64,000 nt of DNA, taken from positions 62,808,001-62,872,000 of the forward strand of contig NC_058368.1 in NCBI RefSeq assembly GCF_018350175.1, in the 5' to 3' direction. The notes below the pieces were generated by a model. The model did no database searches and was not told where the DNA came from. It saw only the letters and a list, made by a program, of their open reading frames with translations. Of this stretch, positions 3,155 to 59,790 are shown piece by piece (position 1 is the stretch's first letter; each line of letters opens with the position of its first letter). A program made the position numbers and the translations under genes. The DNA comes from Felis catus (taxonomy: Eukaryota).

Positions 3155-3236
3155 AAGCTAACTGGCACATATGGGGAGTGAAAACATGACCGTGGCCTCA
3201 TTAGCACCATGTGCTAAAAAACGGAGCTAGGCAGCC
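3155..3236 (-). mobile_element. tRNA-Ile(AAT)-derived ancient SINE head (MamSINE1-like)
   Basis: Reverse complement 'ggctgcctagctccgtt...agcacatggtgctaatgaggccacggtcatg...ccccatatgtgccagttagctt' resembles tRNA-Ile(AAT) plus the MamSINE1 extension; too degenerate to be a tRNA gene. Confidence 0.65.
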
Positions 3237-3964
3237 AAGTGTGAAGGTGAACCAGTCATGGGGAAGGTCTGGGCACCCTAAAATGGACGTGTTTTGCTTC
3301 ACTGTGGAGTTTTTCCTGAATGTAATTAAAGCCTGATCCTTTCCAGCTGTAGTGCCACAGATTGTTTTAAGATAAACTCAATCTATAATTAAAAATCTCA
3401 TTAATCATTTCCCAAATTATTTGTTGTACTATAAAATGGAAGTTGAAACCATTCCTGCTGTGAAAAACAGTTATAATATTAATAACCGTGGCTGTAACAG
3501 ATGTTAATGGTGAAAGGACCTTTGTGTTACTATTTATAGTTTTCTATTTTCACACCTCCCTCACAAAGCAAGCAAGTATTCTTTAATCCAATGTGTTTTC
3601 TGACTTTGAAATACATTCAGCATTTTAAAAAAGTTTTTACTGTTGTATGAGAAGAATATTATATGATTGTAATTCCAGACTAAAGTTATTAAATAGACTT
3701 AATGTGCACAAATGTAACTGGATTAAAAATGAGATTATTTAGTTTATTTTGTGATTAGCAATCCATTCAGATACTTAGACCCACTATCTAATAGCTACCA
3801 GACTGAGGTGTTTTTTTTCCCTTCCTGGAATGTTAAGATTCATACCAGCTTTAAGTTTATAAAGACAATAATGGCCCTTCGCCATAATGATAGGAATAGG
3901 CAACAGAACTCTGACCAGGTGACAATTTCAAATGTGGTTCTATGGTAAAGAAGTTCTACTATCA

Positions 3965-4100: not shown

Positions 4101-5368
4101 GGGGAGTCTCGACGTATTTTCACTTTGTACTTTCATCTTCTGTCTTTGTCCCTGTGGTGGTGTGTGAGAGACTCGTGGGTAGTGAACTGAGCTTTAACAA
4201 TTAAATCTGAAAGACATCTAAAAACCCAGTTCTCGTTTCCTAAACTTTCCAAGACCCAAGGGAACAAACCTCTTCAAGGATAGCATTCTGACTAATAAAG
4301 TGAAGTACGTTCTCTCACTCAGCTGTCTTTCCTGGCCATTTGATAAATGGCTAGCCATGTCATGCATGGCACCCGATGATGTTCACAAGAATACCAAAAG
4401 CCACCAGGAGTAAGGAGAAGTCATATATTAATTATATTTTAAATATATGTATTACACAGAAATTGAGTAGCCTGCAGTAGAATATATCGGTACGGATACT
4501 TTTGTCATACTGATTATTTTTGTCATTTATGGTTCAAAGCTACAGCTCTATATTTATTGCTTGGTCATGCTTTTGTTTGGCTGTTTTGTATTAGTAAAAA
4601 AATTCAGTAGCAATAAACTAAAAATATATATACATTTAATGGTAAATTGAGTTATACATTTTTATACTTCAAGAAAGTTGTTATTGATAATGTAACTACA
4701 TAGAAAGCTGGCAACATTTATTGCCTCACATGGCAACAAGATATCAAATCTGTTGAGGAAGAATTAGTACAGCTAGTTGATGTGTGAAGAAGCGTGTGTT
4801 CAAATAGAAGGATTTAGCAACTGAAGTTTCTATGGTAAAGAACTATGTTCTTTGTTTCTGTGGTAAAGAACTATGTTTCTTTCAGAGAACCACATTTGAA
4901 ATTGTCACCTGGTTAGAGTTCTGTTGTCTATCCCTATTACTTTGGTCAGGTTCTATTATTATCTTTATAAACTTAATGTAGATATGAAAGAGTGCTCACA
5001 TATCATTCTGTGAAAAACAAATTTTCACTCAAAGATTGTTCTTTTATTTTTGTTCTATTTTCATCTTCAGTTTTTCTTAATTATCATGAAAAGTAGTCAA
5101 TATGTAGCTTTGTTATCAGAAAACTCTTCATAGATAACGAAATTATTCCAGTTTTATATCAGTGCCATTAGATACTTCAAATTAGTTTTTTAATACTTGA
5201 TATGGGTTGCATATTTTTATCCAATTTATAAAAGCAGAGTGAAGCTGTTAGACGTTCATTTTGTCAAAGATTAAACAGAAACATTAGTCAATGCTACTAT
5301 AAAGTCAATATTAAAGATAAATTTTGGTAGGGCAGAGTATCATATTTAAAAAAAAAAAAAAGACCCTT

Positions 5369-12319: not shown

Positions 12320-12830
12320 GTGCTGCCCTTTATGGATTATAGCATTTTATTGCCAATGCATAAGAAATGTGTTATTTTCCAATGCCCCTTCCCCTTACTG
12401 CTAATTTCTTTGTTAGTTTCGCCTGATTGCTTTAGCAATTCTGAGGAGCTGTTGTATTTGGATGATGTTTGAGTAGCAATTTTAGGCTAAAGACTTCATT
12501 CAATTGACTCTTTTGAAACTTATTAATCTTGTGGTGATGCTGGTGACGGAAGGATAAATTAGGATGCCTTTATTATTGATCTGTCCAAAGCTTTCATGTT
12601 ACTTGATCATACTCTATTGTTAATACAGCTGAAGGCAATTAATTTTAGAAACAAGACAAGTGTTAACACAGTATAGTTTGAAAGTCTTCCCGTTAAAGGA
12701 ATTGAACTTTATTGTAAAGTGTTGGATCATTTCAATTAATTTTATTTCACTTCTAAATTAGCAGAGTATTTAAATGTGTACTTGCTCTGTTCTATGAATC
12801 TATCTGTTCTTTGATCTTTCAAAACCAAGT
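12320..12830 (+). mobile_element. Ancient non-LTR retrotransposon RT relic (CR1/L2/Crack-group-like)
   Basis: Manual translation with frameshifts gives collinear motifs PMHKK, ISLL, FR, LLKLIN, IIDLSKAF..LDHTLLL, *FES, SVL*..LF. Confidence 0.75.
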
Positions 12831-18747: not shown

Positions 18748-18944
18748 GTTTTTTATTTTATTTGAGACAGACAGAGAGAGGAATGAGAGAGAATGAGCTG
18801 GGGAGGTACAGAGAGAGAGAAAGAGAATCCCAAGTAGGCTCCATGCCCAGTGTGGAGCCTGACATGGGGACACAGAGTTTGATCTCACAACTGAGATCAA
18901 AAACAAGAGTCTGTGCTTAACTGACTGAACCACCCAAGCGCCCC
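18748..18944 (-). mobile_element. Can-SINE
   Basis: Antisense body; TSD ccacactgtttt / ccatactgtttt. Confidence 0.93.
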
Positions 18945-20149
18945 TACCATACTGTTTTAAAGAGGAATCCAGGGTTGAATGTTAGCAAATCTGGAAAGAG
19001 TTTGCAGAAGAAAAAGAATATCTTGTAGAAAGGCCTTAATAAATGAAAAGAAATAATCTAAACATTAGTAGGCCACACTAACAAATCCAGGGGGCATAAT
19101 CAAATAAAATGAACTTCAAAGCAAAAGAGATTTTTGCCTGAGGGTTGAGTCTAGCAAAGCCCCGGAGAATTAAAAATATGGGAGCAAAGAAACTTATGTG
19201 CTTAGAATCTCTTTGAATTTTATTTAATTGAATGTTACTTAAAAGTATGTATAATAGCATTAATATTTATCATTATTAAAATAATAATTGGGTGGAACAC
19301 TTAACCCTTGTCAAAATTGTATTGTGTGATCAAACACATGTATACAGTAGCTCAATAAACTCTATTTTAAGAAAGTGGTATGACCACTTATAGATGAAAA
19401 AAATCAAGACTTAGACATTTAAGTAAATTTTTGAAGTCCAAACAGTCAGAAAGAAAAAGGGACTGTATAAAAACCCGGGTCTGTGTGGGAGGGGAGAAGG
19501 CAGAAGGTTGAAGGTAAGAAAACTGAGGATCCAAAGGGCGATTAAAACAATTGCCATTTCTTTGAAAATATTAGTGAGAAAATTAGTGATAAGAAATAAG
19601 ATTATATACATATGTGTATTTAGCAGTGAGATAATATGATAATATTATAGTGTAAGAAAAATCAGAATGAAATTTGGTTTGTTTTTATTTTTACATAGAG
19701 AACAAACAACTTTTAGTACAATTGGGAGAGAGAACACCTCATGTTGAGAAGGGACAGAAGAGAAGCCAAGATAAATTGGATGAGATAACTTCATAAAAGG
19801 AGATGAAATGAGAGACAAAGAGTATGGAGTGCAAAGCATCAAAGAAAAATGAAAGATCAGCAATTTATGTCAATCTCTTGTCAGTTTTTAGATAAACATG
19901 GACCAGGCTTTGAAAAGCTAGTTCTTTCTTTTGAGTAGGTATCACTATTAAAAATTCATTCCCCGCATAGGTATTTCTACTGGGAGGATTTCAATTAGTT
20001 CAAAATGTATTAAATCATTTTTCTGTCAAGAATCACCAAAGCAAGAATGAGAATTACTCAGTTAGAAAGAAAGAAGGGATGAAGGAGAAAATAGAATAAG
20101 AGAAGGGATGGCAGAAAGTGTTGTTTATGAATTTATTAATATTATTGAT

Positions 20150-24341: not shown

Positions 24342-27271
24342 TTAAAGTCATTATTTACATATGAATGAAATAATTGAAATTGAAAGGAGATTCTATCAAA
24401 ATGGTTTGTGTTCCCTCTGTAAGACTTCCACAATTATTAGCAATAGAGTTCTTTACTACACCACCTTACTCACCTAATACTCTACCCTTACTTCTAGGAA
24501 GGCACTTGAATTTTACACTTAAATTTTGAATCTTTTCTGAATAAAAATAAAGTAGAGCAAATAAACAGGTTTTTCTCCATTGGATGTCAAAGGATCTCTA
24601 TAGGTTTATTCCTGAGGTCTCTAAAATAAGCTGTGTTATTTAGAGGTCACATTTTCATTCTCTTTCTGACACAAAGATTGTTTTAGTTTTTAATGCAGAG
24701 TTTTAGTTGCTGTAGAAAGCTGCTCAATTATCGAAGCTGAAAGGCTTCTTTCCAGGTTGGTTTCTAGAAGATAAGTAAGACACAGGATGGAACAGGTGTC
24801 AAAAGCAATTGTGAGCAGGTAGGCATGATTCTATGGCAGCCCACTCCTTTGCACCTAAACAGTAAATCTTGAAGACATCAGTTCACACCATATTTAAAGA
24901 CAGTATATACCTGAGTAATTCTTAATTTATTATTTTCTCTGCCCCTTCCTTTGTTTTAGAATCTAATTATCAGTAATCTAGTTCAGAGGCTTTGAACTTG
25001 TCACATTTCATTTGCTTTGCTGTGCCAGTTTAAAATGAAGTGGGATAATTTTGCAAGAGGATATTTGAAAACCAAATTTCTACCACCATCACATAAATAT
25101 TACACACTGGGACTTCTAATTTCAAATTATTTTATCTTAAAAAGGTACCATTTCCTTGGTATGTTGAAATATTGTTCCATGGTGTAAATATGTAAACAAA
25201 GTATCATGCTTTTTTGTATATTTTCAATTATAACATTAAATAGTAAAGAAGGCATACCATAAAATGCCCCTAAAATAAAAGTTATATATTGGAGTGTTCA
25301 CAAATACAACCTTTAAAAAAAATTACAGTATTATGTTTTTTTACTTCCTCTGAAATTTCTGTTACATAGGGAAATTGAATATTTAAAAAAATGATGCATC
25401 AATATCTACAGGAGAAGAATTCCTGGTAAACCTGTGAATAAACATGATGACAACGAGAAGCAGCAAAAACCAGCACATCCACAGATACTACTTTCTAATT
25501 GCATAATCTGGTCCCTAAAGTTATCTTAAAACAGTAAGTAAAATCTCTAAGTTCTAAACAATGAGGTATCACTAAGGACTGTCCCAACTAAAGGCTCTAG
25601 AAATGATTCAATTCAGCACACTCCTCTGGCTGAATCCCTAGAATTTTCCCCTACAATGTCCTCAGTGCCTCACTTCACTTCCAGTACACATCTACCTGCA
25701 AGAAGAGATCAATGGTAGATAAGATTATGTTTATTTTCTCTTCATTCCTTTTCTTTCCTCTTTTAATTCCAGGAACAAGCTGAAATGTCGGTGGCATTCC
25801 TTCTGGTGGCATTAGAGGTATGTAAAGATGTGATGTGTATTCTCTATTTCCCCCCAAAAATGAGAAACTACTATGACATTTTGTTCCTGGTTAGTTAAGC
25901 CTGAGTATAAGGGGAAATGATTTAATAACAACATGATGTTTCTTATATTCTGACTATAGGATTCTAAGAACAAGTTGTCCATATATTCTAATTCTAGGAG
26001 CTTTTAAATAGCATTTATGTAAGCCAATATTGCAGAAAAGAGTCTCAAATTTAAGTTTGACTTTTTATGCCATCTGTGACCAGATAAATTGGATCCAGAT
26101 CAATTTTAGAGCCATGTTATTTAATAAAATCAAATTGATTATGCAGTGCTCTCAAAACCAGGCATTGCTGTTCATTGGGAAACATCAATTTTTTCTTCTG
26201 CTTTTGCAGTTACAAATTAATATAGTACTCCATTAGTGAGATGAACTTCAGGTTACTAATTAGTATAGCACCCCATTAGTGAATTCTATTTGCTTTGTAA
26301 TTTGGCAAAATTTATTTGTCTTTGGAGAATGTCCTAAATCTTTGGTCCAGAATATTCTGCCGTTCTATTTTTCCCCTCAGTCTATCACAACCTCAGAATC
26401 TCTCCCTTTGCCTCTATCCACTCCTCCCACCCTCATTCCAACAGATGAAATTGACTCTACCTGCTAGCGAAGAGAGAGGAGAAAAGAGTCAATGTTTTAG
26501 TTACATCCTCCTCAGCATCATATTTTACTCTTCCCTTCTCTTCTACCAAATTATTCTGTTCCCCTTTTAAGAACTCATTTGAATCCCATGCAAATAGGTC
26601 CATTTATGAGAGGGAATCAATATTCTTATTGCTGAGATCGGCTCTACAATGAACGCAAAACACTTGTCCAACAGTGGAGAGTATCTAAATTGCTTTGTAA
26701 CATCTATGTCATTGGATATCTCTGAGAATCTACTCCAAATCGCCTCCAAACACCTTTCCCATACCATGTCAATTGTTTCTGGGAATTCTGATTTGAGATG
26801 TGGTGTAGGTACGCTGCCTGACTTTGTAATATGTTCTATTCTGTGCATCCTTACAGGCCTCCTGGATCTGGTCAAAATGCAAAAGTGACACTTACTTTCA
26901 AATGAATCCAAATCACACTCTTGAGCTCCTAAGGAAATACTTGTCTGGCAATTACATAAAGCATTTATGAATAGGTTTAGGCAAATGAGCCACAAGGGAC
27001 AGCCATTTTATAAAATTATATAGGCCATGTTTTTGCCTAGATTTGAACATGGTGATAATAGACAATATACTATCTGGGATGATTATTCTTCAAAATCCTT
27101 TTGTCTTTACCTTCATCTCCTACTCCACTCAGGGCCCTGCCTATTTGAAGATCGTAAACTGGCAGAGTGACCTGAAATGGAATGGTTGCAGAAGTCTCTC
27201 CTTCCACCTTCAGAACATTTCCTATTTGCAGCATTTTTTTAGTGTTTTAGCCTTAAAGATACCAGAGATGA

Positions 27272-27602: not shown

Positions 27603-28190
27603 CAGGCATAACCGGGAGATAGTACAGGTTCGGTTCCAGGCCATCGCAATAAATCAAATATTGCAGTGAAGAGAGTCAAATGAACATTTTGGTTTCCTGG
27701 TACATATAAACATTAGGCTTACACTATACTGTAGTCGATTAAGTCTGCAGTAGCATCATGTATAAGAAAACAATGTACATACCTTAATTTAAAAATACTT
27801 CATTGCTTAAAAATGCTAACCATCACCTGAGCTTTCGGTGAGGTGTAATCACTGATCACAGATCACCATAACAAATATATATTAGTGAAAATATTTGAAA
27901 TATTGCAAGAAATTTATACTCTCAGGCCCTACCCCAAATGTACAGACTTGCATCTTAGCAAGATTTGTGTGTCCATTAGACTTAAAAAAAATAACAATTT
28001 TTCTATAGTACTTGTATCATCTGCATGATCAAAAGCACAGAAAGAAACAGACATAAAGTGAGCAAATGTTGTTGGAAAAGTGACAGCAGGAGACTTGCTT
28101 GGGGTGGGGTTGTCACACACCTTCAATTTATTAAAAATGCAGCTTCTGGGAAGCATAATAAAGCAAAGCACAGCAGAACAAGGGAGGCCG
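27603..28190 (-). mobile_element. Tigger1 internal-deletion derivative (Tigger1a-like, TcMar)
   Basis: TA + 'caggcata' terminus; both Tigger1 end regions joined at 'gtaatcactgatcacagatcaccataac'; carries a ~140-bp foreign insert. Confidence 0.88.
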
Positions 28191-30024: not shown

Positions 30025-30150
30025 TATCGCCCGCAGGACAGACTCACTGATATCACTGAGGAGCTTAGTAGAAATCTATACTTTCATGCCCCACCCCAAA
30101 TCTATAGACTTGCATTTTAGCAAGATTTGTGTGTCCATTAGACTTAAAAA
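30025..30150. mobile_element. MER5A-like hAT-Charlie MITE
   Basis: 'atcactgaggagcttagtagaaat...gccccaccccaaa...ttgcattttagcaagat'. Confidence 0.6.
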
Positions 30151-31446
30151 CAAATCATTTCTCTATAGTAACGTTATCATCTGTATGATCAAAAGTACAG
30201 AAAGAAAATATTTTAAATTCATTATTTTAAAAATGAAAAATTGAAGTTTTTTTCCCACAAACTAGTAACTCCTTAAGCTTATAAGATAGTTCTATCTTAA
30301 AAAAAATGTGAAGTTTGCTGTCAATAAAAAGGTCTAAAATAATGTATTATTCTGGTAAATAGTTGCCGTAATGCAGGCTGGCCACTTAGTGATAGCATTG
30401 TCACTAGAATTGGATTCATATTACATAGGTAATACTAGAATGTGGGGGCCTGTGCATCAAGCCTCTAAAGAGGTCGAAAAGGGATTCTCTCCTGGGGAAA
30501 TAAAGTCAAACTTTATGGGAAAGCTTCCACAAAAGTGGAAACCAGCTCCATATAAGAAATATAAGGTTGACATGGTAAGATAAAGGGATAAAACTAAGTC
30601 TTATGTTTTCTCTCAAAAAGGCTGCTAGTGGTTGAATGTCCTTCCATGTTAAATAATCAAAAGAGGTAAAAATGCAACAGAGAGCATGGAATATTTGCCA
30701 CCAGTGTAAATAACCCAGAGAAAAACCAACCTCATTTTACTTGACTTGAGGTTCCACTTTATATATATCATAGCATTCACATTAATCCAACTCCCAAACG
30801 TTTTTGAATATGTAGTTGCACCACGAAAAAAAAGAAAAAAGAAAAATCTTGAGGACCCTGTAGAGAATTATACAGTATAATGAGTTTCCATAATTTTTTT
30901 CTTACCTGGCAGCTGCCTCCAAAACTTTACACTTTTTTCTCTAAAATTCCTCTGAATATTTTTTCCAATCTCCAGACTACTTATAGTGCCTGCCATCTCC
31001 TTTCTTTCTCTTTATTTTTAAAATACATATTAATTTTAAATAAATACAATTTTATAATTTATGTAAATATAAATTATAAATAAATATTTTAAAAGATAAA
31101 TTTTAAAACAATTTAGTCTTCTCAAAGGCTTTTTTTCCCCCCTCTTTTACATTTTATTGATCACTTTGGCAGCTCTAAGGAAAGGATTTTGAGGAAGAGA
31201 AGTGGAAGGTTTGGGGTTAGGAAGGGTGTTAAAGTCTTACTTTGGGGCTTTGGTCTGTGTAACAGTAATGGCGAAGCAGGGTCAGGTAGCTCACTAAGAA
31301 GAGGTTAAAGTCGTAGCTAAGACACTCACCTCATTTTTGGCCTCCACTGAAGGTTTAAATCAGTGGCTTTCAGGTTCACTTGCCAAATACAAGTATCACA
31401 TTCCCATATGTCTTATTAATTTTAAATTAAATTTAAGAAAAATATG

Positions 31447-57639: not shown

Positions 57640-58685
57640 CATTTTCAATTTGGTGAAAACATAGCTCAGTATAACTGATTAACTTCAGTTAGCTACAGTG
57701 ATGAAGAAAAAAAGCAAGAAAACACAGATAACAAGTTTCTCAAATGAAAGTGGTATCATCACTGAAGACTGACATTCAAAAGATAATAATGGAACACTGC
57801 AAAATATTTTATACCCGTAAATTGACAACTCAGATGAAATGACCAATACTTTGAAGTGTGCAAACTATTAAATATTGCTCAAGAAGAGATGAACTGCATA
57901 ATCCTGAACCTATTAATGAAATTCTATTCGTAGTTAAAAGCTTTCCATCAAAGAAAACTTCAGATCCAGAGAGTTTTACTTGTATGTGATACCAAAACCT
58001 TAAGGAATAAATAAAACCAATTCTACACATACTGTTCAAGAATATAGAAAAGCAGAGAATGCTCCCCAATTCACCTTATGAGGCCTGTATCACCCAGATA
58101 CCAAAAGCAGACAAAACATGAGAAAACCACACTATCCTTCATGAATAAAGATGCAAAACTCCTCAAAATATTAACAGACAGGATCCAACAATATATGAAA
58201 ATGATAATACATCAATACCAAGTGAGGTTTATCTAAAAAAATGTAAACCTGACTTGACGTTTAAACACCTTTCAATATAATACAACACATCAACTGACTA
58301 TAGGTGGAAGGGGGCATTTGACAATGTTATTATTTGCAGAAAAACATATTTAACGAAATTGAATCCACTTATGCTAAAAACTCTCAGTGGATAAGAATGG
58401 ATGGGAGCTTCCTCAAACTGGTTAGGAGCATATACTGAAAAACTACAGCTAATACTGTATTCTACTTAATGGTAAAAGAATGAATGCTTTTCCCATAAGA
58501 TTGAGACCAAGGCAAAGATGTTCACTGTTACTGCACTTATTGAATATCTTACTGAAATACCTGGGCAGGATAATAATGAAATAAAAATAAATAAAACATG
58601 TAACAGGCAAAGTATTAGAAACAAAAAATGAATTGCTCCTATTTTCAAACGGCATGATTGCTTCTATAGAAAATCTCAAGCATCA
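57640..58685 (+). mobile_element. L1 ORF2 fragment (post-endonuclease through RT ADD motif)
   Basis: 'aattgacaactcagatgaaatg' (KLDNLDEM), 'ccttatgaggcc...ataccaaaa', 'atgaataaagatgcaaaactcctc', 'caaacggcatgattg'. Confidence 0.88.
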
Positions 58686-58699
58686 CTGAAGACAATGTT

Positions 58700-59790
58700 A
58701 ACAGGAACAATTCTCAAGATGGAAAAATATGATCATGTCTGATTCAGTAAACAGTTTTAAAATAGATAATAATTGTCAGAATTACGAGGACAATTTTTCA
58801 AATCCTAATTCAAAGTAGGAGAAAGTGATAGCCTCTACTGAGAGTTGTTAGGCAGGCAACCTTAAAAAAAAGAGTAATGATTTAGAAATGTTGAATAATA
58901 ACATTAAGAAGTATCATCTTACTAATAGATAAACAAGGTTTACACTTACCTATCAGAAATACACATTTTTTCAAGAATACCTTAAATATTTTTCAAAATT
59001 GGCCATCTGACAAGGCACAAAGTAAATAAATGTTAATGAATGTGAAAAAATTAGTTTCATATACTCCACAAACCTTTAACCACAATGCAAATCAATTAGA
59101 GATTCTAAAAAAAAGATACATTCATATATAACTACATAAACGAATTAAAATGTATTTTAATATTCTATCAGTTACAGAAGAAATTATAATAGAAATGAGA
59201 AACTCTTTAGAACTGAACAGTAGTAGAAATATTCTTATAAAAAACTATGATATGCATATATATGTATATGTATATGCATATATATGTATATACATATATA
59301 TGCATATCATAGACATTTCTAGCCTTAAACCATTACATTTAAAAACAAATGAAAGAATAAAATTCATGAGCTAATATTTCAATATAAAAAGTTATGGAGG
59401 GGTATCTGGATGGCTCAATCCATTAAGTGTCCAACTCCTGATTTCAGCGCAGGTCAAGATCTCAAGGTTTTTGAGTATCAAGCCCTGTGGCAGTGCTGTG
59501 CTGAGGGTGGAGACTGCTTGGGATTCTCTCTCTCCCTTCCTCTTTATGCTTGTGTGCTCTCTCTCTCTCTCTAACTCTCAAAATAAATAAATATACATTA
59601 AAAATAGGGAAACAAAAGTAAAATAAGGGAAATACAAGCAGAAGGGTGGAAATAATAAAACTAAAATCATAGGTTAATGATCTAGAAAGCACAGGTGACT
59701 TAGAGGAGTGCCCAAATAAACAAAATCTAGTGATTTGTTATGAGTAATAAACAGCCCTCTGGTAATATTGATACAGAAAATAAGGACAAC
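58700..59790 (+). mobile_element. Old L1 ORF2 endonuclease-region fragment
   Basis: 'gaaatacacattttttcaag' (EYTFFS), 'aaaattggccat' (KIDH), 'accacaatgcaaatcaattagagat' (DHN.IKLEI). Confidence 0.75.
59399..59605 (+). mobile_element. Can-SINE
   Basis: Full body inside L1. Confidence 0.92.

Follow-up and report, generated by a model that had tools for sequence, protein, structure and literature searches.

Protein fossils of L2, Crack and Daphne elements that predate the amniotes have been published for the human genome (Frith 2022, PMC9004415), and the tables of that study list 25 pre-amniote and two pre-tetrapod L2-Crack fossils, one Daphne and three Kiri fossils (PMC9004415). X13_LINE is the one human repeat that is filed under Crack in Repbase (Kojima 2018, PMC5753468), and the same article states that there are no reports of Crack elements from any amniote (PMC5753468). 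Crack and Daphne are not monophyletic, and Dfam files all of them as L2 (PMC13343379). The accessible portion of the RRE preprint contains no mention of Crack or X13. Our analysis of 64,000 nucleotides of Felis catus DNA (contig NC_058368.1, positions 62,808,001 to 62,872,000; the whole stretch is referred to as the window) did reveal a relic that resembles Frith's human fossils in being a short (100-300 bp), frameshifted and putatively L2-side LINE protein fossil in non-coding mammalian DNA, and in being hard to detect by standard methods (PMC9004415). Frith's fossils differ in that they have been dated, through one-to-one alignments with reptiles or frog, and described as conserved among mammals (PMC9004415). 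The relic is also comparable to X13_LINE, by description only, as an ancient Crack-type LINE trace in a mammal (PMC5753468). The original prediction had presented such a LINE fossil as novel, a view that is not supported as stated, the kind being already described (tables 3-5 of PMC9004415; X13_LINE in PMC5753468). Such fossils are thus already known in mammals, nothing here shows a job for the relic, and this copy is possibly catalogued already via its human ortholog.

The supported core of the relic lies at 12480-12700 on the plus strand and is non-coding. It reads FR, TLLKLIN..EG and AFIIDLSKAF..DH.LLL up to a stop codon followed by FES, and is interrupted by two stops and two frameshifts. 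The best-preserved in-frame stretch comprises 31 codons at 12566-12658 (plus strand) and contains the motif-A-like DLSKAF..DH, in which Met replaces Asp after AF; residues resembling GA.F/IIDL precede the motif in the window sequence, and the K of DLSK and the D of DH are present. By its residues the relic is a fragment of a non-LTR reverse transcriptase (RT) of about 220 supported bases, dead because of its stops and frameshifts, and it is smaller than first claimed. That it is not an intact gene had been correctly foreseen, given the stops, the frameshifts and the lack of a recognisable YADD. The eight strings quoted in the original prediction were all found where it had placed them, across all three plus-strand frames and including the TAG at 12674, with the one correction that four residues, not two, separate ISLL from CFSN.

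For comparison we assembled a motif-selected set (120 loci found by the pattern DLSKAFD..DH, of which 26 with both outer motifs in frame were kept), a second set of 120 proteins related to one of the motif-selected loci, and an independent set (120 loci found by the pattern GVPQG, of which 39 with at least 130 in-frame residues upstream were kept). Many GTDB bacterial and archaeal MAG contigs (L121-L240) carried animal-type non-LTR RTs, which points to host DNA contamination of these assemblies. The profile of the 26 motif-selected loci was discarded as circular, and masking the motif cost the locus its place as the best local match. The profile of the 39 RTs is non-circular because its members were selected on the downstream GVPQG alone, without the DLSKAF motif. 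Among 127,996 six-frame residues it identified (hmmsearch) a single significant domain in the window, at about 12539-12655 (i-E 0.0018). The expectation that an RT search would find the relic was therefore borne out by this profile and failed with Pfam, which detected no RVT_1 among eight translations and only a weak PH_5 match. A frameshift-aware, CpG-corrected codon model ranked the locus first in the window with 33.0 bits, followed by a site with 25.9 bits, and four simulated 64-kb strands yielded 19.5-24.8 bits under the CpG-corrected model. A codon model that ignores CpG decay inflates scores: SINEs reached about 30 bits with it, and controls that had been reversed or complemented reached 55-78 bits. 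With the CpG-corrected model, none of 600 random window segments scored as high as the 34 columns upstream of the 11 motif columns and nine of 600 scored as high as the 30 columns downstream, both spans having been picked after the alignment had been seen. The motif-A region and its flanks are collinear with CR1-group RTs. Self-matching of the window revealed no other copies of the relic, and no other RT-region fragments stood out in the window with RT profiles under the CpG-corrected model.

These results bear on the question of whether the motifs are a chance resemblance in AT-rich non-coding DNA that was selected by eye. In favour of chance, Pfam, PDB and large protein searches returned no RT, many windows and motifs were screened in the first stage, the outer motifs score at chance, and DLSK appears a second time at 12813, in a different frame. 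Set against this, the locus is the top match of a profile that was not selected on the motif, both flanks are significant independently, and a homologous sequence termed P0002 (see below) keeps consensus residues when read in the RT frame and scores above the null. We therefore consider chance very improbable. Among the further standard searches, none of 597 candidates proved to be a longer relative of the translation in a single frame at E<=10, and a representative protein search returned a single match, P0002, which is not an RT and as a query retrieved only itself. Pattern scans of viral contigs gave no matches, the locus was not listed by an unanchored nhmmer search with the flanks alone, and no Rfam families were found at the locus or in the window. 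Behind the reference RT loci, a Transposase_22 ORF1 had no match at the one locus checked, where the controls were silent as well.

The original prediction had read a longer RT motif series at the locus, of which the core at 12480-12700 stands beyond chance and the outer motifs, placed in the expected order, carry no statistical weight. A tentative 5' extension at 12333-12479 (plus strand; W..A...P.HKK, ISLL, EELLY) has the right order and nearly the right spacing and scores at chance, as does a tentative remnant of GVPQG..LF.IFIN at 12775-12828 (plus strand; CVL, SVL with a following stop, LF and LIFQN). The best placements of the outer blocks end at 12418 and 12828, as the prediction had put them. 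However, 202 of 400 random segments score as high as the upstream block (PMHKK/ISLL) and 103 of 400 as high as the downstream block (CVL-SVL/LIFQN). Longer upstream blocks remained at chance level in 21 of 21 tests, and so did YADD-containing blocks in 28 of 28 tests with the codon model lacking CpG correction, under which whole-span anchored alignments were likewise not significant (40-65 of 400). No recognisable YADD follows the GVPQG remnant, and an open frame with YADD, as expected of an active LINE or a domesticated RT gene, is absent. Outer-block scores as low as those observed were obtained for 6-21% of copies simulated at d 0.3-0.45, and the outer motifs are thus compatible with a decayed copy but prove nothing. 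A third-frame reading of the tentative LIFQN remnant gives LFFDLSKP (12804-12827, plus strand), the second DLSK string mentioned above, which we take as chance.

With regard to the type of element, the relic was correctly predicted to be unlike L1. By its search results it is not L1, because a PDB search with the relic gave no matches at E<=10, while a genuine L1 relic elsewhere in the window matches L1 ORF2p. The latter is a decayed ORF2 fragment of an ordinary old L1 at 57750-58700 (plus strand), in which residues 6-72 of the 57900-58200 translation match human L1 ORF2p 456-522 (E 2.8e-13). In a quick tree of 98 RT cores, from which the relic was left out, we distinguished one CR1-like and one canonical-L2-like group besides several DL.KAFD.VDH groups, these names being our own labels from motifs and not Repbase labels. 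Since DLSKAFD is spread over four groups and two long-branch outliers of this tree, the motif is not diagnostic of a clade. Of the claim that DLSKAF is typical of Crack, Daphne and fish-type elements, the part that is supported is that the relic fits DLSKAF-type fish and invertebrate RTs better than the canonical L2-like and CR1-like sets; as a clade diagnosis the claim fails.

Scored over motif and flanks with default weighting, the relic reached 31.8 bits with D1 (teleost elements), 29.6 with D4 (invertebrate-type), 27.9 with D2 (teleost) and 24.9 with group C, compared to 23.9 bits with 12 L2-like RTs and 23.8 with 22 CR1-like RTs. The flanks alone gave 14.6 (D1), 12.7 (D4), 11.5 (D2), 7.0 (C), 9.2 (L2-like) and 11.0 bits (CR1-like). 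Over five settings D1 and D4 scored 25-37 bits versus 20-26 for the canonical L2-like or CR1-like sets, and equal-size subsamples gave 37.2 and 33.5 bits for D1 and D4 versus 25.2 and 24.0 for L2-like and CR1-like RTs. The lead belonged to D1 or D4 throughout the six settings and also when subsamples of nine were used. Without the motif, the margin of D1/D4 over CR1-like RTs is about 1-4 bits, or up to 4.5 in equal-size subsamples, between groups that are unlabelled. It should be added that a motif-selected sequence, L077, served as the seed for the D groups, and that the L2-like set, enlarged from three to 12 sequences, holds no mammalian member as far as known and consists of non-mammalian stand-ins for L2/L3. 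The relic shares motif order and spacing with RTs of D1, D2 and D4 (e.g. L077, P0004, P0013 from Labrus, P0017 from Oryzias and P0037 from Labeo), the common order being FR..T.LLK..N....D.G...AIFIDLSKAFD.VDH.LLL..L, then WF. In contrast to the relic with its some 220 supported bases, stops and frameshifts, these RTs of teleosts, frog and invertebrates have an intact RVT_1.

A DLSAAFD-type motif denotes L2, and DF.KAFD.V.H denotes CR1/Zenon (L3-type). Neither a DLSAAFD-type motif with a best score to L2 RTs nor a DF.KAFD.V.H-type motif with a best score to CR1 RTs was found at the locus, the flank margin over the latter being small. The predicted difference from L2 and L3 is supported in so far as D1/D4 outscore the canonical L2-like and CR1-like sets, a comparison made against non-mammalian stand-ins only. 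Among the CR1-group relics of mammals, L2, L3 and CR1_Mam greatly outnumber all others, and the relic could be an ordinary copy of one of them, with a motif that drifted to DLSKAF and a routine RepeatMasker label. In favour of such a copy, the flanks also beat the null with CR1-like (0 and 0 of 300 segments) and L2 profiles (1 and 0 of 300), and 3 of 34 CR1-like copies simulated at d 0.45 were assigned to D groups by the model without CpG correction. Furthermore, only 0.3% of the TE protein fossils in human were not already known to RepeatMasker (table 1 of PMC9004415). We nevertheless regard an ordinary copy as distinctly unlikely, since in each setting the better of D1 and D4 exceeds both the L2-like and the CR1-like set by a total of 6-13 bits, and since the GA.F/IIDL-like residues, the K of DLSK and the D of DH match the D groups more closely than they match the L2 or CR1-like consensus. 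The relic behaves as a non-canonical L2-side element that Repbase would probably call Crack or Daphne, a clade name that we infer, as the reference groups used here carry no such labels.

Simulated decay of 17 independent RT loci matched the core at d of about 0.3, where the flank median was 11.8 compared with 11.6 in the relic, and matched the outer blocks at d 0.3-0.45. Once d reached 0.8-1.0, the simulated copies had lost the flank signal, with medians of -0.3 and -3.4 bits. The model thus suggests a decay of about 0.3-0.45 substitutions per site, which is the range for neutrally decayed repeats of L2/MIR age. At general background rates this fits a neutral Mesozoic insertion or an older one under constraint. 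The only cross-species comparison is with P0002, a 61-residue chance ORF on one Logan contig, to which the relic is homologous at 12367-12559 (plus strand), mostly outside the RT frame, with the same residue in 38 of 57 aligned codons and four indels. P0002 is an ortholog or a sister copy of the relic. The two differ by d 0.20 (95% 0.13-0.29) over about 190 bases and by indels of 3, 10, 12 and 9 bases. This corresponds to about one indel per 10 substitutions, which is the neutral ratio. With the neutral distances from cat to other mammals taken as general background, the divergence is near neutral if P0002 is from another placental and indicates constraint if it is from a marsupial or a more distant species. 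When P0002 is read in the RT frame via nearest codons, its ALLK..N and a KG line up with the consensus, and on four profiles it reaches 6.0-6.8 bits, with null means near -4.5 (both from the model without CpG correction). These in-register residues support homology, not function.

The best explanation in our view, although held tentatively, is a dead internal RT-region fragment of a CR1-group LINE of the non-canonical L2 side (Crack/Daphne-like) that is decaying neutrally or mildly slowed. LINEs enter the genome through target-primed reverse transcription, frequently in truncated form, and their copies become fragmented over time. A single insertion by this route would have occurred in the mammalian stem lineage or earlier; coding would then have been lost, and the copy would have decayed neutrally, or with only mild slowing, by about 0.3-0.45 substitutions per site. 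The relic would have no present role, and its visibility would be owed to the chance survival of the most informative RT motif. This neutral persistence is likewise a leading but uncertain part of the reading. It would be contradicted by strong constraint if P0002 proved to be from a marsupial or a more distant species, and, given that Crack is not known from amniotes and that Frith's L2-Crack fossils are pre-amniote and conserved, the same decay over >300 My would need selection.

The latter consideration leads to the alternative that the same Crack/Daphne-like fragment is pre-amniote and has been retained by purifying selection because it regulates without coding, most likely in the manner of an enhancer. 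The original prediction leaned this way in taking the fossil to be pre-mammalian and possibly exapted, two points that are not supported as stated here. Pre-amniote L2-side human fossils are reported as strongly conserved (PMC9004415), the closest RT groups are those of fish, frog and invertebrates, a copy that old would need slowing since the simulated flank signal is gone by d 0.8-1.0, and the core is better preserved than the outer blocks. On the other hand, a better-kept core is expected from ascertainment, the sole homolog P0002 shows four indels and d 0.20 in about 190 bases, and no gene to regulate was found in the window among the 266 of 708 ORFs scanned. We consider purifying selection unlikely, albeit worth serious attention. 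The combination of a pre-amniote Crack/Daphne-type insertion, absence from Dfam and from Frith's catalogue, and co-option of the RT motif-A region as a mammalian enhancer appears improbable. If this combination held, the fish-type D1 lineage would be extended to mammalian ancestry, one more Paleozoic LINE fossil would have turned into a regulatory element, and a data point would be gained in favour of fish-type CR1-group elements having been passed on vertically among the ancestors of tetrapods. However, several hundred human examples already draw that picture (PMC9004415), and one more locus matters little unless its target gene and activity are shown. On the preferred neutral reading, the relic is inert fossil DNA that is useful only for repeat libraries.

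The window is AT-rich (GC 30-42%) and CpG-depleted and contains about 30 copies of one short repeat, presumably the carnivore Can-SINE. The locus is not an assembly error, since its 601-base stretch recurs at a share of 1.00 in 13 runs from 6 studies, not counting the possible source run. Six contig rows from RNA runs had shares of 0.11-0.79 and provide no evidence of expression or of other species. Pfam domains over the cut-off were absent from the 266 of 708 ORFs of at least 38 codons that were scanned, with eight weak matches, and an ORF-based scan of this kind would miss short or AT-rich exons. Together with the lack of Rfam families, this places the locus in intronic or intergenic DNA. 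A 146-codon stop-free frame without a Pfam match lies outside the SINEs at 26570-27007 (minus strand). One of the 266 scanned ORFs, with 43 residues at 3205-3333 (plus strand), showed a weak match to the Pfam agnoprotein of polyomavirus (E 6.6e-05; 23.2 bits, cut-off 27) that is probably due to chance. Single self-matches in the window were observed at 3839-3952 and 4877-4988, 18810-18945, 27908-28047 and 30070-30207, and are likely pairs of older low-copy repeats.
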